NCBI GenBank assembly: GCA_965209055.1
Contig: OZ242374.1
Location: forward strand, 2,912,001 to 2,976,000
Length of the DNA stretch: 64,000 nucleotides
Direction: 5' to 3'
Origin: Acidobacteriota bacterium
Lineage (GTDB): Bacteria > Acidobacteriota > UBA6911 > RPQK01 > JAJDTT01
A program made the position numbers and the translations under genes. The notes beneath the pieces were generated by a model. It was not told the DNA's origin. It did no database searches and was given only the letters and a program-made list of their open reading frames with translations. Positions 57,910 through 64,000 of the stretch are shown piece after piece; within the stretch, counting starts at the first letter, position 1, and every line of letters begins with the position of its first letter.

Positions 57910-58842
57910 ATGGACAGGGAACTGCTGACCTGGTTCAACGGCCGGCTGGTTCCGGATTCCGAGGTCCGGATCCATCACACCGACTCCGGCCTCAGCTTCG
58001 GCCACAATGTGACCGACTCGGCGCGGACCTTCGGGTACCGCCCCTTCAAGCTGAAGGAGCACATCGGCAGGTTCTACCGCTCCATGTCGGTGGCCCGGAT
58101 CAATCCCGGCATGACTCCCGAGCGGATGGAAGAGATCGCACTGGAGGTGCTGGAGGCGAATCGTCCCGTCCTGGACCCGGACGGTGACGTGTGGGTCACC
58201 CAGACCGCCACCGGAGGCCGGATGCGCAGCACCATCGGACGTTTCGAGTTCGACCGTCCCGGGCTGCTCATCGCCACACTGCCGCTGGGCTTCGCCGATT
58301 ACGCTCACCTCTACGAGAAAGGGGCCCACGCCGTGACCCCCTCGACCCGGCATATCCCGCCCCAGTCGCTGGACGCCAAGCTCAAGCACCGGAACCGGAT
58401 CTTCTTCACCCTGGCTGAATTCGAGGTCAAGGAGGTGGACCCGGAGGGTTTCTCTCTCCTTCTGGACATCGACGGCAACGTGACGGAGAACAAGGGGGCC
58501 AACTTCTTCATCTACCGTGACGGACGCCTGAGGACGCCCACGACCCGGAACTGCCTGGAGGGAGTCAGCCGGGCCACGGTGCTGGAGCTGGCCCGGGAAG
58601 AAGGGATTCCCGCGGTGGAGGAGGACTTCCAGCCCTACCATGTGACCACCGCGGAGGAGGCCTTCTTCTGCAGCACCTCCTATTGCATGCTCCCGGTGAC
58701 CCGCTACAACGGCAATGTGCTGGGCGAGGGCCGGCCGGGACCCGTCTATCGCCGGCTGATCGGCGCCTGGAGTAGAAGAGTAGGAATGGATATTCCGGAA
58801 CAGGCGCTCCGAGGAGCGGCGACTTGGAGCGGCGGTTTCTAA
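57910..58842 (+). CDS. Class IV PLP aminotransferase (BCAT/DAAT/ADC-lyase-like)
   Basis: WFNGRLVP, EHIGRF, AKLKH, ENKGANFF, LEGVSR, EEAFFCST. Confidence 0.9.
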   Translation: MDRELLTWFNGRLVPDSEVRIHHTDSGLSFGHNVTDSARTFGYRPFKLKEHIGRFYRSMSVARINPGMTPERMEEIALEVLEANRPVLDPDGDVWVTQTATGGRMRSTIGRFEFDRPGLLIATLPLGFADYAHLYEKGAHAVTPSTRHIPPQSLDAKLKHRNRIFFTLAEFEVKEVDPEGFSLLLDIDGNVTENKGANFFIYRDGRLRTPTTRNCLEGVSRATVLELAREEGIPAVEEDFQPYHVTTAEEAFFCSTSYCMLPVTRYNGNVLGEGRPGPVYRRLIGAWSRRVGMDIPEQALRGAATWSGGF

Positions 58843-58848
58843 CCGCCG
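58813..58848 (+). repeat. REP units forming the 3' end of the aminotransferase gene
   Basis: GGAGCGGCGACTT-GGAGCGGCGGTTTCTAACCGCCG, same family as 40852. Confidence 0.7.
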
Positions 58849-59022
58849 GCCAGGGGGGGGTAGGGGGGACGGCAACACACCCATTGAATCCAGCGATATC
58901 CCAAGAGATCCCGGAATATCTTTTAAGTGGTTGGTTTTCTTTAGTTTATACCTGTTCTCACCCCGTTTCTTCCTCCCCTGACGTCCCTTGATATCCATCT
59001 CTATCCCGTTTATTATGGTGTA

Positions 59023-60258
59023 ATGGGTGATGTAATCAGTGCTCCCCTTTTGCCCCGGAAGACCAAGCCGAAGGGCCGCCACCCCCACAAGGCGCTCTCC
59101 GCCGCTTTCGTGCGCTCCGCCCCACCGGGCAAACACTGCGACGGCAACGGACTCTACCTCTTCGTCAAGCCTAACGGAGCACGAAGCTGGATCCAACGCC
59201 TCGTCATCCGCGGCCGCCGCCGCGACTTCGGACTCGGCGGTGTGGCACTGGTGTCCCTGGCCGAGGCCCGCGAGAAGGCGCGGGCCAACCGCAAGCTGGC
59301 CCGCGAAGGTGGGGATCCCCTGACCGAGAGACGCCGCACGCACAACATGCCCACCTTCGCCGAAGCCGCCGAGCGGGTGGTGGAGCAGAAGCGGTCCGGC
59401 TGGCGCAATCAAAGGCAGGCCCACGACTGGATGGCGAGCTTTCGACGCTACGCCTTTCCTCACATCGGCCGGATGCCGGTCTCGGAGGTGACCAGCGGCG
59501 ACGTCCTGGAGATCCTCGTGCCCATCTGGCACGTGAAGTCGCGCACGGCCCGGACCGTGCGACAGCGCATCCGCACGGTCCTGGAGTGGGCCGTGGCGAT
59601 GGAATACCGGACCGACAACCCCTGCGACCGGGTCGTGTCGGTGCTCGGAGCACAGGACGACGTGGTGCGGCACATGCCGGCCTTGCCGCATCGCGAGGTG
59701 GGGGCGGCCCTCCGGAAGGTGCGGGCCTCCAACGCGATGCCCGTGTCCCTGCTGGCCTTCGAGTTCCTGGTGCTCACGGCGGCGAGGTGGGGCGAGGTGC
59801 GGTGGGCCGAGTGGCTGGAGATCGATCCGGCGCAAGGGATGTGGACGGTTCCCGGAATCCGCATGAAGACCAAACGGGCGCACCGGGTGCCTTTGTGCCG
59901 CCGGGCGAATGAGATCCTGGAGAAGGCACGCACGCTGGATCATGGAGCCACCCGGTTGATCTTCGCCCGAAGGGGCGGAAAGCCGCTCGGCTCCGGCCGG
60001 TTGCGCAAGCTGCTGCGCCGGAACGGGATCGCCGCCGTGCCGCACGGGTTCCGGTCGAGTTTCCGGGACTGGGCGGCCGAGGAGACGGATCATCCACGCG
60101 AGGTGGTCGAGGCGGCGCTGGCGCATGTGGTGAAGAACAAGGTCGAGGCGGCGTACCGGCGCACGGACCTGTTCGAGCGTCGGCGTCGGCTCATGGAGGA
60201 CTGGGCGAGCTATCTGGCTGGCGAGAGTCCGGAACGGGTGGCCGGCCGGCTCCGTTGA
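59023..60258 (+). CDS. P4-like tyrosine integrase with Arm DNA-binding domain
   Basis: DGNGLYL..K..G.RSW, GLG....SLAEAR; catalytic TAAR, MK, HGFR, LAH, AAY all intact. Confidence 0.95.
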   Translation: MGDVISAPLLPRKTKPKGRHPHKALSAAFVRSAPPGKHCDGNGLYLFVKPNGARSWIQRLVIRGRRRDFGLGGVALVSLAEAREKARANRKLAREGGDPLTERRRTHNMPTFAEAAERVVEQKRSGWRNQRQAHDWMASFRRYAFPHIGRMPVSEVTSGDVLEILVPIWHVKSRTARTVRQRIRTVLEWAVAMEYRTDNPCDRVVSVLGAQDDVVRHMPALPHREVGAALRKVRASNAMPVSLLAFEFLVLTAARWGEVRWAEWLEIDPAQGMWTVPGIRMKTKRAHRVPLCRRANEILEKARTLDHGATRLIFARRGGKPLGSGRLRKLLRRNGIAAVPHGFRSSFRDWAAEETDHPREVVEAALAHVVKNKVEAAYRRTDLFERRRRLMEDWASYLAGESPERVAGRLR

Positions 60259-60451
60259 TCCGCCGTGGTGGTTCTCCCGGCAGGCTTCGTGATCTGGGGT
60301 TCGAGCCGGATTCCGGGAGGTCGATCTTGACCGCTGAAAAGTGGGGTTCCGTGCCGCTCGGGGAGTGCACCTGAGACAATGGGGGGCATGTGCACCATGA
60401 GGGCTCTTCGATGTGCACGGCACCGTTCCTCTAACTTGCTGTCCCCATTCG

Positions 60452-60624
60452 GGTTACGGCTCGCCTCGCGGCTCGGCGGCACCGCTCGGGGAAAGCGGAG
60501 GTGGACGGGAGCGACCCCCCTTTTTTGCCTCCCGGATCGGCAAAGCGGGGCAGGCTGATGCGCACTGACCGTGCCATCGCCTCGGGGGGTCGCTCCCGTC
60601 CCAATGATCCCTGCCGGGAAGGCC
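60452..60624 (+). repeat. Repeat family B copy 1 (long hairpin, oriT-like core)
   Basis: GGACGGGAGCGACCCCCC (60503) pairs perfectly with GGGGGGTCGCTCCCGTCC (60584); homologous to 61078 and 63915. Confidence 0.85.
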
Positions 60625-61077
60625 TCTGGATCGCCTGAGCGCGTGGCGGTGCGGCACGGAACGGCGCGGTGGGCAGGCCGCCGCGTGCCAGTGCTCGTAC
60701 AAGCGTCTGTGGACGGCCCCGATGGCTGGACGGAGTGATCTGGCGGATCGAACAGGCAATCTTCTTCCAGAAATGCGGAGTGTGCTGAAAGGGACGCGGG
60801 CCGATTCGACGGCTATGGCAGCGTCAGGGCCTCGCTGAGACCGGCCATCGAGTGGCGACCAGGGGCGGAAGATCGCGCCGCCGGCGTGGAGATCGACGAC
60901 GACGTTCGCGACGCTCTCGTGGCGGGCGACACGCTTGCCGGGGAGCTCATTTTGACGGGTACAGAGCGCCCCACCGTGTCGATCCGGGAGTGTAAGGGAG
61001 ACAACGGGGGCAACTTACATCATGGGAGTCTGCCAACTTACACACGCGATTTCTCCGATCTCTTTGTCGCTCATGCT

Positions 61078-61250
61078 GTTACGGCCACATTCCCGGCTCC
61101 GCCGTGCCCGCACGGGGAAAGCGGAGGTGGACGGGAGCGACCCCCCCCTTTTTCCTGCCCGGTGCGGGCGCGGGGGCGTGGCGCAACTTACATCTGCGCC
61201 ACACCCCCTGGGGGGGTCGCTCCCTTCCAAAATATCCCTGCGGGAAGCCC
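61078..61250 (+). repeat. Repeat family B copy 2
   Basis: CGGGGAAAGCGGAGGTGGACGGGAGCGACCCCCC identical to copy 1; inner hairpin GTGGCGCA-ACTTACATC-TGCGCCAC. Confidence 0.85.
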
Positions 61251-61595
61251 CGGAGAAGAATCCGGAAGACCTGTCAGGGCTCTGCCAGGCGTCCGTTCTC
61301 GACACGCGGTGCAGGATCCAGGCATGACCACAGGCGACACGTGCCAATGGGGTCCGCAGGTGCAGGTGGATTTTCGGCGTCCTCTTGGACGAGGAGGTGG
61401 ACCGAACCCCGGAAGGCCTGAACTCGGAACGGCAGGCGGAGGTTCGCGTCGGGGTCCGCTCCAGGCCCAGCCCCCGATCCAGGGCCTGGCCGACGAGGCG
61501 GCCGGTGCGGGTGGTGGTGGTCCGGCCGTCGAGAGCCGCCTCCACGCCGTGGTGGCACCGGAGCAAGCGGCGGTCGAAGCGCAGGGCGCGGTTTC

Positions 61596-61768
61596 TCCGG
61601 CAACCCGGAACGGATGACGGACCGGGGGAACCGATCCCCCCAGACCCCTCAGTGGCGCCAGAACCCCTGGCGGCTCACCTTGCCGCCAGTGAACCTGGCG
61701 CTTCTGTTCGTCGCGCGTCCCATGAGAATGGGACCCTCACGCGGTCTCCTCGGCCTTCCAGCCGGGAG
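61596..61768 (+). repeat. Repeat family A copy 1 (multi-hairpin; candidate structured ncRNA or ssDNA signal)
   Basis: Homologous to 63415-63586, with conserved hairpins. Confidence 0.85.
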
Positions 61769-61786
61769 TGAGACGTTCGCCCGTTT

Positions 61787-61877
61787 CCGGCAGTCCTGGC
61801 CAATCGGACCCGGTCAGCTCCGAATGTCCGCCCCCAATTCCCGGAGCGCGCAGGCGCTTGAAACCTGGGAGTCGAGG
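61787..61877 (+). pseudogene. Degenerate remnant of the N-terminus of the integrase at 62168..63256
   Basis: QSWPIGPGQLRMSAPNSRSAQALETWES versus KYWPHGSGRLRMYAPNYRSAQALQTRIES. Confidence 0.8.
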
Positions 61878-62085
61878 CGAGAAACTCGTCCATGGAGTCC
61901 ACGGACCTCCAATAGGGTCGAATGGAATCCCGTTTAGAAGGTGGGATGTAATGATGTAACCTGCTCGGGAGAATAGATCATAACTACTTTATTATCAGAT
62001 ACTTAAGAGATCGTTTCCGTAGAGGGGACGGCAGTCCCCCCTTTACGCTTATCCACCGCTGACTCGCACGGAAAAAGGAAGAATG

Positions 62086-62129
62086 GGGGACTAACAGTCC
62101 CGCGCTCTGTCCTGCTGAGCTTGGGGCGC
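62086..62129 (-). other. tRNA 5'-half fragment (candidate att site)
   Basis: Reverse complement GCGCCCC-AA-GCTC-AGCAGGACA-GAGC-G-CGGGA-CTGTTAG-TCCCC gives acceptor 5' strand, D arm and anticodon arm; no T arm follows. Confidence 0.7.
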
Positions 62130-62167
62130 TTGCTTTTATTTTCAAGGGGTTACGCCACTGCTCTCCT

Positions 62168-63256
62168 CTAGTCATTCCCCCTATTTCCTGCCTGTTGCCT
62201 GTTTGTTGCCGGGCGCATTTGTGAGTCTTCGGTAGCCTGTGCCTCCCGAATGCTGGCCAGCGCGTGGGAACTGACGTACCCGGCGTAGCGCATCGTCGTG
62301 CTGATTGCCGAGTGACCCATCAGCTTCTGCACCGTCCTCACGTCCACCCCCTGCATCAGCCAATGGCTGCACCGGAATCGTCTCAGGTCGTGAAATCCGA
62401 CCTTCAACCCCACCCGCTCGGCGGCCCGGCGCAACGGCTTGTCCGGATTCACCCATCTCGTCCCGGTCCGGGTGTTGACGAAGACGTAAGGGGTGTTCAG
62501 GTAGCGAACCAGCCCGGCCAGGTATCCAGCAGCGTACTTCGACAGCGGGATCTCCCTCGTCTCGTCGTTCTTGGTGAATTCCACCCATAGCAGCCTCCGG
62601 GATAGGTCCACCCGTTTCCAGGTGAGCGACAACGCTTCGCCTTTTCGAATCCCCGTCTCGCCGATCACCGCAACCATGGCTTGCAGGTATGGGTTGTCCA
62701 TTGCCCCGACCAGGTCGCGGAACTGTTGAACCGTCAAGGGCCGGAAGACCTTCTTGGGTTCTTTCAGTTTGGGGAATCTCACCAGCGGGTGCGTGTCCAC
62801 TTCCCCGCACTCCAGCGCGTAGGAAAACAGCTTGCTGATGGCGGCGATGTCGCGGTTCACCGTGGCCGGCTGCACTTGCTTCTTTCTCTTGGCGACGTAG
62901 CGGTACAGGTCCTTGCGTTGGAACTCCTTCAGGGGAATGTTCCCCAGCATGGCGTTGAGGCTCTTGAAGGAGAGCGCATAGCGACGCCGGGAGCGCATGC
63001 GAGGTTTGCAGTACTCCTCGAAGAAACGCTCGTAGAAGCTCCGGACCGTCCAGACGGTGCGGTTCCCGCCGGCGAGTTCCTCCTTGAGCTGCTTCCATGT
63101 GCCGTCCAGGATGCTGGACTCGATTCGTGTTTGAAGCGCCTGTGCGCTCCGGTAGTTGGGGGCGTACATTCTGAGCCGACCGGATCCGTGCGGCCAGTAC
63201 TTGCTGACGACATAGCGTCGTCTCCCCCGGCGATCCTTCACCTTGTAGATGCCCAT
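62168..63256 (-). CDS. Phage-type tyrosine integrase
   Basis: AGGAGG RBS; ATVNRD, TGIRKGE, TKN, FHDLRR, MGHS, TTMRY catalytic set intact. Confidence 0.95.
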   Translation of the reverse strand: MGIYKVKDRRGRRRYVVSKYWPHGSGRLRMYAPNYRSAQALQTRIESSILDGTWKQLKEELAGGNRTVWTVRSFYERFFEEYCKPRMRSRRRYALSFKSLNAMLGNIPLKEFQRKDLYRYVAKRKKQVQPATVNRDIAAISKLFSYALECGEVDTHPLVRFPKLKEPKKVFRPLTVQQFRDLVGAMDNPYLQAMVAVIGETGIRKGEALSLTWKRVDLSRRLLWVEFTKNDETREIPLSKYAAGYLAGLVRYLNTPYVFVNTRTGTRWVNPDKPLRRAAERVGLKVGFHDLRRFRCSHWLMQGVDVRTVQKLMGHSAISTTMRYAGYVSSHALASIREAQATEDSQMRPATNRQQAGNRGND

Positions 63257-63414
63257 AGCATCTCCTCCTTTCTGGATCCGGGTTCTTCGCCGTGGGGCGA
63301 ATCCTACCACGGCGCCAGAGAATCGACGTCGGCGTTCAGGTCCTTCAGAGCGAGGACGCGGCGGCGGCTCCATCCAGATCACAACGGCGGGCCGATTTCG
63401 TCCTGGTCCGCGAT

Positions 63415-63586
63415 TCCGGCAAGCCGGAACGGATGACGGACCGGGGGGAACTCTCCCCCCAGACCCCCCAGTGGCGCCCTCAAAGAGTCAGGCTCACCAT
63501 GCCGGACTCTTTTTCACGCGCTCCTGTTTGTCGCGTCCCATATGAATGGGTCCCTCGCGCGGTCTCGGACGGCTTCCAGCCGGGAG
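63415..63586 (+). repeat. Repeat family A copy 2
   Basis: CCGGAACGGATGACGGACCGGGGG...CCCCCCAGACCCC...GGCTCACC.TGCC...GTCCCAT..GAATGGG...CTTCCAGCCGGGAG shared with copy 1. Confidence 0.85.
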
Positions 63587-63914
63587 CAGGATTTCTTTCG
63601 TGGAAGGTGCTGATTGTGGGGTCAGCAAAACGACGCACCCTGTGGGAAATCTCTGATTTTCCACACGGTGGGGAGGCTCGAACCCAGGGCCTCGGCGCTC
63701 ACTGGAAGGGATTTTCAGTTGGTAGGTGTCTCTTCTTCTTGTCCGGTCAAAATCTTTCTCGTAGCTCTGACAGCCACAGCGCGGACAGCGGTAAGCGCGG
63801 CGGCCGCGGAGCTTCTCCACCGCCTGCTTCCTGAGGGCCTCCAGCCGTTCCTGGTTGTTGTGGATATCAGGGATGCTCCTGCATCCCATCTTGCCCGTCA
63901 GGGTGTCATCTCTT

Positions 63915-64000
63915 GCCTTCCCGCTAGGGATAATTTCGACGGGAGCGACCCCCCCAGGGGGTGCTGCGCAAATGTGAATTGCGCAACACCCCCGCGCCCG
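63915..64000 (-). repeat. Repeat family B copy 3 (truncated by the window end)
   Basis: Reverse complement aligns to about 61165-61250. Confidence 0.85.

Follow-up and report, generated by a model that had tools for sequence, protein, structure and literature searches.

A hairpin element repeated beside integrase genes

We analysed a 64,000-nucleotide (nt) stretch of the genome of an Acidobacteriota bacterium (contig OZ242374.1, genome positions 2,912,001 to 2,976,000; hereafter the window), and in particular two copies of a non-coding hairpin element, which we call family A, that lie towards its end. A preliminary description of this DNA had reported a pair of structured repeats at 61596-61768 (copy 1) and 63415-63586 (copy 2), and alignment and blastn bore this out: the homology starts and stops where it had been said to, and the copies are 76% identical across 172-173 nt. 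Their neighbours are also as described, with an intact tyrosine integrase gene on the minus strand at 62168-63256 and a remnant of the same gene on the plus strand at about 61792-61881. The window contains exactly two occurrences of each of two conserved blocks, 24 and 29 nt long, and none of 100 shuffles contained any match. Relative to shuffled sequences, the folding z scores of copies 1 and 2 were -4.5 and -3.3 on the plus strand and -4.0 and -2.6 on the minus strand. All positions are window coordinates unless called genome positions, and the features of the locus are these:

61596-61768, plus strand: copy 1 in its earlier limits, comprising the core with flanks of 23 nt on the 5′ side and 26 nt on the 3′ side
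61619-61742, plus strand: core of copy 1, 124 nt, with ends set by junction comparison; the 3′ end reads ...CCCTCACGC
61622-61641, 61642-61653 and about 61654-61702: hairpin 1, C-rich linker and hairpin 2 of copy 1
61717-61734: hairpin 3 of copy 1, preceded by a T-rich tract that follows hairpin 2
about 61792-61881, plus strand: N-terminal integrase remnant beside copy 1 (..SWPIGPGQLRMSAPNSRSAQAL..), 82-88% identical in nucleotides to the 5′ coding part of 18 copies
62168-63256, minus strand: tyrosine recombinase, 362 amino acids from MGIYKVKD (Pfam Phage_integrase at 1.1e-26, with Int_N and SAM-like domains)
63382-63437, plus strand: 3′ remnant of an ORF141-family (ribbon-helix-helix-like) gene, ..DFVLVRDSGKP
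63415-63586, plus strand: copy 2 in its earlier limits
63438-63560, plus strand: core of copy 2, 123 nt
63441-63460, 63461-63472 and about 63473-63522: hairpin 1, linker and hairpin 2 of copy 2
63535-63552: hairpin 3 of copy 2, preceded by a T-rich tract

Comparison of junction sequences indicates that the true unit is the 123-124-nt core, and that the 172 nt originally delimited take in flanking DNA. Across at least six left contexts that are unrelated to one another, the 5′ edge falls at the first base of GGACCGG: these contexts are the tail of an ORF141-family gene remnant (as in copy 1, copy 2 and related copies), the integrase leader (in four copies here and two in a congener), the end of a second hairpin repeat, family B (truncated inverted copies), a plasmid-like unit, and two congener loci. 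The 3′ edge falls after ..CGCGC (the core ends in ..CCCTCGCGC) in five contexts, and both a 14-nt insertion in one subtype and a ~30-nt deletion in another begin exactly there. The 5′ 23 nt of the element as first drawn are the last codons (..DSGKP) and tail of an ORF141-family remnant; in copy 2 this remnant lies at 63382-63437 and supplies the small hairpin TCCGG..CCGGA that comes first in the 172 nt. Local alignment to the 3′ end of the ORF141 gene on the plasmid-like unit gave z = 10 for 63382-63437 and z = 20 for the copy at genome position 3005k.

Genes of the ORF141 family occur at 10 places in the source genome, and in the copies linked to them (copies 1 and 2, their relatives and the plasmid copy) the core lies a few bases past the gene's stop codon. 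At a core-less paralogous locus (genome 3164180-3164420), global alignment found both flanks colinear and separated by one gap of ~130-145 nt. Because this core-less locus is colinear, the core acts as a discrete insert just past the stop of an ORF141-family gene. Its orientation relative to that gene is inverted on the plasmid as compared with the islands. On the islands a second, inverted copy often lies ~150, 400 or 870 nt away, placed against the end of family B and truncated after hairpin 2; we found six such pairs here and two in a congener, and the enclosed segment has the same orientation in all eight. The junction between the element and the integrase leader differs between subtypes. 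The core is a discrete non-coding module and a passenger of mobile DNA.

The core could be told apart from several familiar kinds of sequence. A 2-nt indel shifts the reading frame between the two copies and the possible peptides, compared by reading, are not conserved, in agreement with the original view of the element as non-coding and against a coding region. A tRNA or tmRNA origin was rejected, as blastn found no match to any of 69 tRNA and tmRNA genes and ARAGORN called no tRNA or tmRNA in the window. Rfam gave no match at gathering score across the 64-kb window, and at E ≤ 1 across the whole 2.7-kb mobile element that holds copy 2 its sole match was a chance match of another hairpin repeat, in line with the earlier remark that the element was not recognised as a known family. 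Family A is an undescribed sequence family, but of a kind, the cis-acting hairpin module of mobilisable DNA, that is already known.

Compensatory change is confined to one stem

The preliminary description had argued that pairing was kept while the stem sequences changed. We examined this in an alignment of 20 sequences (A3) restricted to the part that all of them share, namely hairpin 1, the linker and hairpin 2. RNAalifold and pair counting gave 21 pairs with 95% of cells paired, as against 42-52% in slid controls, and none of 500 shuffles reached the observed covariation score. This signal comes from the inner stem of hairpin 2, where six of the eight pairs have changed on both sides, yielding about five distinct stem versions across which an asymmetric internal loop is kept. 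Elsewhere such change was not borne out. Hairpin 1 of the two copies differs by one added pair only, and its 5′ arm carries uncompensated G-to-T changes across the family; hairpin 1 and the outer stem of hairpin 2 show essentially no compensation, one outer-stem pair having a single double change. Hairpin 3 of copy 2 contains a T-T mismatch and no compensated pair, and because it and its flanks are nearly invariant across the family it is uninformative on pairing. The GACC/GGTC and GGAA/TTCC pairs that had been suggested to close the fold lie partly in flanking DNA, outside the element proper. Compensatory change is thus real but local, limited to the hairpin 2 inner stem.

The aligned sequences are related and many are duplicates, so the independent covariation events are few. 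Templated repair of quasi-palindromes could yield some compensation without selection; the persistence of the asymmetric loop, which simple palindrome repair would not explain, leads us to infer constraint. In sliding comparisons of identity among three lineages of the 2.7-kb element, the module was no more conserved than its neighbours. More generally, covariation beside a recombinase gene need not mean a partner RNA, in that single-strand DNA sites and hairpin inserts give the same signal.

Copies reside inside other mobile elements

Homologues were collected by blastn and with a covariance model built from A3, the route that the preliminary description had proposed, and both found the family well beyond the window, at 23 and 22 places, respectively, of the 6.08-Mb single-contig source genome. 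Copy 1 has an identical twin at genome 1067336-1067508 and relatives of 93-94% identity at genome 2679203 and 183720. Each of the 22 copies is housed within another mobile element, with none scattered through ordinary intergenic DNA. The same model found 6, 1 and 3 places in three congeners (10 strong matches) and one weak match in a fourth, and no match in the other genus of the family, so that 5 of the 15 family genomes, the source included, have matches; accepted genome copies score at least 65 bits and full copies at least 88 bits. A DNA search of 76 genomes of the order found matches in four, all of one genus and again including the source genome. A search with the hairpin 3 pattern across one genome per species returned 13 loci, 11 of them with a core of at least 100 bits and mostly in congeners. 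Scanning JGI metagenome contigs with a 19-base pattern gave 61 loci, which reached at most 33.5 bits with the model and none of which was accepted (the best was locus L122). Public runs that hold the region are labelled as sponge, coral-reef or marine metagenomes.

At a rearranged locus, genome 481442-481911, a partial copy begins within hairpin 2, in its left arm, and is joined to a copy of the downstream segment in inverted orientation; another partial copy close by has a 9-nt deletion between the two CCCCCCAG repeats.

The integrase belongs to a family of islands

The integrase gene beside the two copies has a strong AGGAGG ribosome-binding site and, by eye, an N-terminal arm-type domain; among NCBIfam models it is Xer-like, far under every cut-off. 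The source genome holds 26 near-full copies with 82-100% amino-acid identity, whose homology ends ~90 nt past the stop and ~110 nt before the start. When the 26 downstream flanks were aligned, the ~90 nt after the stop were found to resemble the 5′ half of a tRNA, with a D arm similar to those of real tRNAs, although ARAGORN calls no tRNA there. This segment runs into a short palindrome that serves as the attachment core, and the features at this end and the element that they bound are as follows:

62088-62100, no strand: 13-nt palindromic attachment core GGACT-AAC-AGTCC, at the integrase end
62101-62167, minus strand: tRNA-like 5′ half, with acceptor strand, D arm and an anticodon-like stem-loop that ends in the core palindrome
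62085-64000 and onward to about 64786 beyond the window, no strand: 2.7-kb integrative element, which holds copy 2

The 13-nt palindrome, GGACT-(AAC or GTT)-AGTCC, occurs 44 times in the genome. Of these, 18 are found 71-98 nt downstream of an integrase stop and 17 where a conserved terminal segment of ~200 nt ends; the remaining nine are beside neither, and most of these look like unoccupied palindromes of the repetitive extragenic palindromic (REP) kind. When ends of the two kinds are matched up, they delimit islands of 2.7 to ~21 kb with the integrase at one end. The smallest, the 2.7-kb element, consists in order of the attachment core, the tRNA-like 5′ half, the integrase, a remnant resembling the excisionase gene xis, the ORF141 remnant, copy 2, non-coding repeats, the terminal segment and the core again, the 13-nt repeats standing at genome 2974088 and 2976772. 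Reconstruction of the site without it yields a REP-like palindrome, two further copies (94.5% identity) occupy genome 3004454-3007202 and 6074458-6077182, and besides the integrase we found no credible open reading frame (ORF) in it. Copy 2 lies 158 nt upstream of the integrase start, in divergent orientation. On many islands a short ORF lies directly upstream of the integrase and has a weak, sub-cut-off match to the excisionase-type helix-turn-helix family HTH_17 (E 0.017), and the cargo of two larger islands that we inspected includes restriction-modification genes (Type ISP and Type III-like) and a Schlafen-like gene.

The preliminary description had suggested that the element might be a non-coding RNA that works with or regulates the recombinase. 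A survey of the neighbouring genes, also proposed there, did find integrase and element living together on the islands, but the element is upstream of only 10 of the 26 integrase copies, one congener copy has no integrase of this family within 1.5 kb, and a 4,384-nt unit described below carries the element with no integrase detectable by tblastn. Moreover, the stem versions do not follow variants of the integrase or of the attachment core, the leader junction varies by subtype, and the stem arms have no match at the element ends. The link to the integrase is one of shared residence on one island family, not a partnership. A guide RNA was rejected on similar grounds, the variable stem arms and loops being without a match at the element ends even with up to two mismatches allowed, as was a degenerate attachment site or accretion junction, the alignment to both element ends being no better than that of shuffles.

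The island family itself, with its 26 integrases, anticodon-mimicking core, REP-like targets and restriction-modification cargo, may merit its own study. A REP-like hairpin, GGCGGTT N2-6 AACCGCC, has ~200 copies in the genome and is often found 30-100 nt outside the end of an island where the integrase lies, as in the flanks of the integrase copies at 348k, 1126k, 5217k and 6055k. At genome 1142970-1143203 a Y1 transposase-family (IS200/RAYT-like) gene lies just past the attachment end of the integrase at 1143855-1144943, with repeated hairpins of another type in its flank.

A plasmid-like unit carries the core along with mobilisation genes

In a metagenome-assembled genome of another Acidobacteriota bacterium, a 20,989-nt contig repeats a 4,384-nt unit in perfect tandem (100% identity over 3,616 nt). 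It is probably a small circular plasmid assembled as a concatemer, the alternative being a true tandem array. Each unit has one core, ~10 nt past the stop of ORF141, which encodes 141 amino acids, looks ribbon-helix-helix-like by eye at its N terminus and has no Pfam hit. The unit also encodes a protein like NikA and MobC (Pfam NikA-like at 4e-20, plus MobC) and a MOBP-type relaxase of the MobA/VirD2 type (Pfam Relaxase at 4e-21; NCBIfam TraI/MobA(P) at 7e-21, sub-cut-off). We recognised no Rep gene in it; 35-nt tandem repeats that are possible iterons (L158 2436-2534) lie inside an ORF of 320 amino acids, which has a weak KorA-type helix-turn-helix match (E 0.005).

Hairpin 1 and the C-rich linker (a 'G-run hairpin + ACCCCCAG') recur just upstream of the plasmid's mob operon. 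Written as the composite pattern G5-7 N3-10 C5-7 N0-4 A C5-7 AG, this motif occurs nine times in the 6.08-Mb source genome, seven of them core copies, and twice in the 4,384-nt unit, where one occurrence belongs to the core and the other stops ~20 nt short of the nikA-like ATG. The region just upstream of a nikA-like gene is the usual place of the origin of transfer (oriT) and of the accessory-protein site in such modules. In related mob modules from Phaeobacter, Sphingobium, Labrenzia and a planctomycete, whose relaxases are 51-57% identical over the nuclease domain, all four sequences that show the region have a hairpin upstream of mobC followed by a short conserved run; a fifth module that we opened (Agrobacterium) shows only coding sequence upstream of the relaxase.

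A tentative transfer-origin role and its rivals

We tentatively favour, at somewhat less than an even chance, a reading in which the family A core is a putative single-strand DNA site recognised by a relaxosome, either oriT-like or a mimic of oriT; the single-strand origin-type signal mentioned in the preliminary description comes close to this. Hairpin 1 and the C-rich linker would echo the plasmid motif that stands at the classical position of oriT and operator. Hairpin 2 would be a structural hairpin whose pairing is held by compensatory change, a single-strand role being one that would explain why the pairing is kept. Hairpin 3 with the following 8 nt up to the sharp 3′ edge, where indels cluster, would have the layout of known relaxase substrates: the substrates of RSF1010 and RP4 consist of an inverted repeat, 8 nt and nic (PMC4814116, in its table). 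A helper relaxosome would then bind and nick the core and through it mobilise the excised circle of an island that has no relaxase of its own, so that integrase plus oriT would make a minimal mobilisable island. Relaxase-less mobilisable islands that have only an oriT, some of 1.7-2 kb, are a described class (PMC5704250). For this reading we also count that the core is independent of the integrase, occurring on a unit that lacks one and carries a relaxase and a NikA-like protein, and that the islands hold ArdC-like anti-restriction genes, which are typical of transferred DNA. If it is true, these would be among the smallest integrase-plus-oriT islands known; the lineage is, by its habitat labels, one of uncultured sponge- and coral-associated Acidobacteriota, and the module would be a handle for finding the plasmids that move the defence-gene islands of the group.

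Several observations weigh on the other side. In the 98%-complete, single-contig source genome there were no hits to Pfam MobA_MobL, Relaxase, TrwC, TraI_2 or the coupling-protein family T4SS-DNA_transf, and the plasmid relaxase had no homologue in the 15 family genomes searched. With no relaxase or coupling protein found, the cells that hold the islands have no known helper; one NikA-like match over cut-off lies at 2997808 of the source genome. The MOBP nick consensus is YATCCTG/Y, with the nick at the slash. No YATCCTGY occurs on either strand of the plasmid unit, core included, and the sole ATCCTG is in coding DNA; the RP4 nick region is an example of the consensus (PMC4814116). We rejected a MOBP-like nick, AATCCTG/C, on the minus strand in the 3′ flank of copy 2, since it is not conserved in other copies and derives from ORF141-like codons. 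On the plasmid the core lies ~600 nt from the inverted-repeat-rich classical oriT position upstream of nikA, behind another gene, and may for that reason be a second site with another role. Hairpins of G-runs and C-runs are common (GGGAC N2-7 GTCCC has 311 genome matches), so part of the motif similarity is compositional. A blastn search of 72,556 plasmids found nothing resembling the module, and the probable plasmid is read from a perfect tandem in one contig. Finally, an oriT leaves the equally sharp 5′ edge and the truncated inverted copies unexplained, and on these points a transposable insert fits better.

Such an insert, a small non-autonomous element with no role for its carriers and comparable to a MITE (a miniature transposable element with inverted repeats) or a palindrome-associated transposable element (PATE), would have landed after an ORF141-family gene in either orientation; its ends would cause the adjacent deletions and inverted duplications, and its hairpins would be kept by a transposition machinery that reads single-stranded hairpins. 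We consider it rather unlikely, in spite of the exact termini in unrelated contexts, the core-less paralogous site, the two orientations at one target and the hairpins just inside both ends. Rearrangement joints fall exactly at the 5′ end, both at the integrase leader and at family B, and the genome has two Y1 transposase-family (Y1_Tnp) genes. Inverted partial copies flanking a segment are the pattern of intramolecular transposition, and at eight loci such copies flank segments of ~150, 400 and 870 nt. Yet the ends of the core, GGACCGG.. and ..CCCTCGCGC, are not terminal inverted repeats, comparison of the filled and empty sites by reading revealed no target duplication, the bases 5′ of the left end vary (GAC, AAC, CGA, GAT and others), unlike the targets of IS200/IS605, and hairpins 1 and 3 are dissimilar. 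All 22 copies, besides, are inside other mobile elements, and many are duplicates by descent, leaving perhaps only three to five independent insertions. The core could also be a new kind of miniature mobile element, an oriT-derived mini-transposon whose single strand an HUH enzyme, such as a conjugative relaxase, would cut and rejoin at sites made of a hairpin and 8 nt. This is improbable, but it would account for the exact termini, for insertion at one target both ways round and for the deletions and inverted duplications alongside, and if true it would link plasmid transfer machinery to transposition within a genome.

That the element acts as RNA, whether as a terminator or 3′ end after the ORF141-family gene (plus strand), as the leader of the integrase mRNA (minus strand) or as an antisense to that leader, we regard as unlikely. 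On the plus strand hairpin 2 is followed by a T-rich tract (TTTTATTTGT or TTTTGTTTGT in b-type copies and congeners, TCCTGTTTGT in copy 2), a consensus scan flagged terminator-like sites in both copies, and the element stands at a gene's 3′ end in the c-type island and plasmid contexts; the form of a hairpin plus U-tract terminator is strong in congener and b-type copies and weak in copy 1 and copy 2, and the truncated inverted copies lack it. Because compact islands have only a truncated xis-like gene upstream of the integrase, transcription of the integrase probably begins within the element or further out. In contigs from four metatranscriptome runs relatives of the integrase were covered, and one contig linked the integrase leader to the core, but these are assembled contigs of relatives that carry no strand, ends or levels and whose uncovered parts are uninformative, and DNA carry-over is possible. 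Neither strand of 61400-64000 showed a promoter-like site in a consensus scan, upstream sequences differ between subtypes, so that no promoter is conserved, and no Rfam family matched. One terminator role cannot hold on both islands and plasmid, because the orientation relative to ORF141 is opposite, and the near-invariance of hairpin 1, the linker and hairpin 3 exceeds what a terminator needs. We hold it highly improbable that the core is a site for the islands' tyrosine integrase, whether it served for attachment, as an accessory or secondary site, or supplied the inverted repeats of an invertible switch. The G-run and C-run arms of hairpin 1 are like the 13-nt attachment core, hairpin 2 on reading resembles a pair of inverted arms with a 7-nt spacer between them, inverted pairs of a full and a partial copy stand beside the integrase at eight loci, and the core is inverted between plasmid and islands. 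But the element aligns locally to the two element ends no better than shuffles do, and the sole match with z > 3 (an 11-mer in the b786 copy) falls in the integrase-leader flank outside it; the hairpin 1 spacer is only 2-5 nt, and strand exchange at hairpin 2 is unlikely because the loops of pair partners differ. The uniform orientation of the segments enclosed by all eight pairs is at odds with a fim-like switch, and the distance of 1.2-1.3 kb to the attachment cores, the independence of stem versions from integrase and core variants and the plasmid copy without an integrase speak against an integrase site.

Likeness to known systems

Were the core to work as an oriT-like site, its closest relatives would be the relaxase-less mobilisable islands, such as MGIVflInd1 and the 1.7-2-kb MTnSag1 and tISCpe8, which combine a recombinase with a transfer site in cis, an oriT by itself or with an accessory factor, and borrow the relaxosome of a helper (PMC5704250). 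The 2.7-kb element likewise consists of an integrase and the module with no other credible ORF. Unlike most of the known ones, which are single-copy according to the same source, the islands here are multi-copy (26 integrases), and the searches of the host genome turned up neither a relaxase nor a coupling protein. In the oriT of RSF1010 (MOBQ) and RP4 (MOBP) a hairpin is followed by cleavage at 8 nt (PMC4814116), a layout that hairpin 3, the 8 nt after it and the sharp 3′ edge would fit. Compared with RP4 the module has no match of the ATCCTG type to the core of the site; compared with RSF1010, AGTGGCGCC resembles the GTGCG/CC core, a likeness that is short.

The integron attC site is also associated with a recombinase, measures ~60-140 nt, is conserved in structure more than in sequence and acts as a folded single strand (PMC5737381). 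The integrase here, however, is not of the IntI type (its TIGR02249 score is 60.6 bits, the cut-off being 265), the 26 integrase genes lie each on its own island with no cassette arrays, and in the element, with its three hairpins and large invariant blocks, we found no RYYYAAC or GTTRRRY boxes. A ~170-nt structured element beside a multi-copy recombinase gene calls to mind the IS110 bridge RNA, the IS1111 seekRNA and the IS200/605 omega RNA, but our recombinase is a tyrosine integrase (PF00589) and not of the DEDD type of IS110, the variable parts of the element are stems rather than loops, they have no complementarity to element ends or targets, and the element is also found without this recombinase.

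ERIC, BOX, Correia and REP/BIME repeats are ~100-170 nt long, non-coding, strongly folding and multi-copy, with discrete ends and empty sites, as is the module, which shares with MITEs its discrete ends in unrelated contexts and its empty site. Unlike MITEs and modular repeats, it lacks terminal inverted repeats and target duplication, has few copies and is confined to other mobile elements, and it differs from PATEs derived from IS200/IS605 in having no conserved left target of 4-5 nt and two dissimilar hairpins, 1 and 3.

Neighbouring islands and repeats

Copy 1 lies on an island of a second type, which brings two further features into the neighbourhood:

58826-62062, no strand: second island type, holding copy 1, with a P4-like integrase at 59023-60258
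61433-61604, minus strand: fragment of an ArdC-like gene (C-terminal extension), cut off at the 5′ flank of copy 1

A copy of this island with 98.4% identity lies at genome 1064569-1067802; the island has ~15 paralogues near 73% identity, and its right end carries the palindrome GGGGAC-GGCA-GTCCCC. The ArdC-like fragment is 80% identical to three intact paralogues, of which one was seen to have ArdcN and zincin domains, and the homology ends at TCCGGCA. The 5′ flank of copy 1 thus truncates an ArdC-like gene, and its 3′ flank meets the integrase fragment.

The family B repeat is a long GC-rich hairpin, with an outer stem of GGGAGCGACCCCCCC / GGGGGGGTCGCTCCC, found at 60482-60624, 61047-61259 and 63915-64000. 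Its 15-nt arm motif has 168 genome matches at up to two mismatches, some of them by chance, and its end (..CCCTGCGGGAAGGCC) is the start of island cargo. After copy 2, the segment at 63592-63758 contains a GGGTTCGAGCC run like a tRNA T-loop, where ARAGORN calls no tRNA, and a conserved, AT-richer hairpin; the same segment recurs after ORF141-family genes that lack the element. ArdC-like genes at genome 1990500-1994500, with paralogues at 476k and 2522k, adjoin tRNA-Leu(taa), which ARAGORN finds six times in the genome, suggesting that some are island-borne duplicates.

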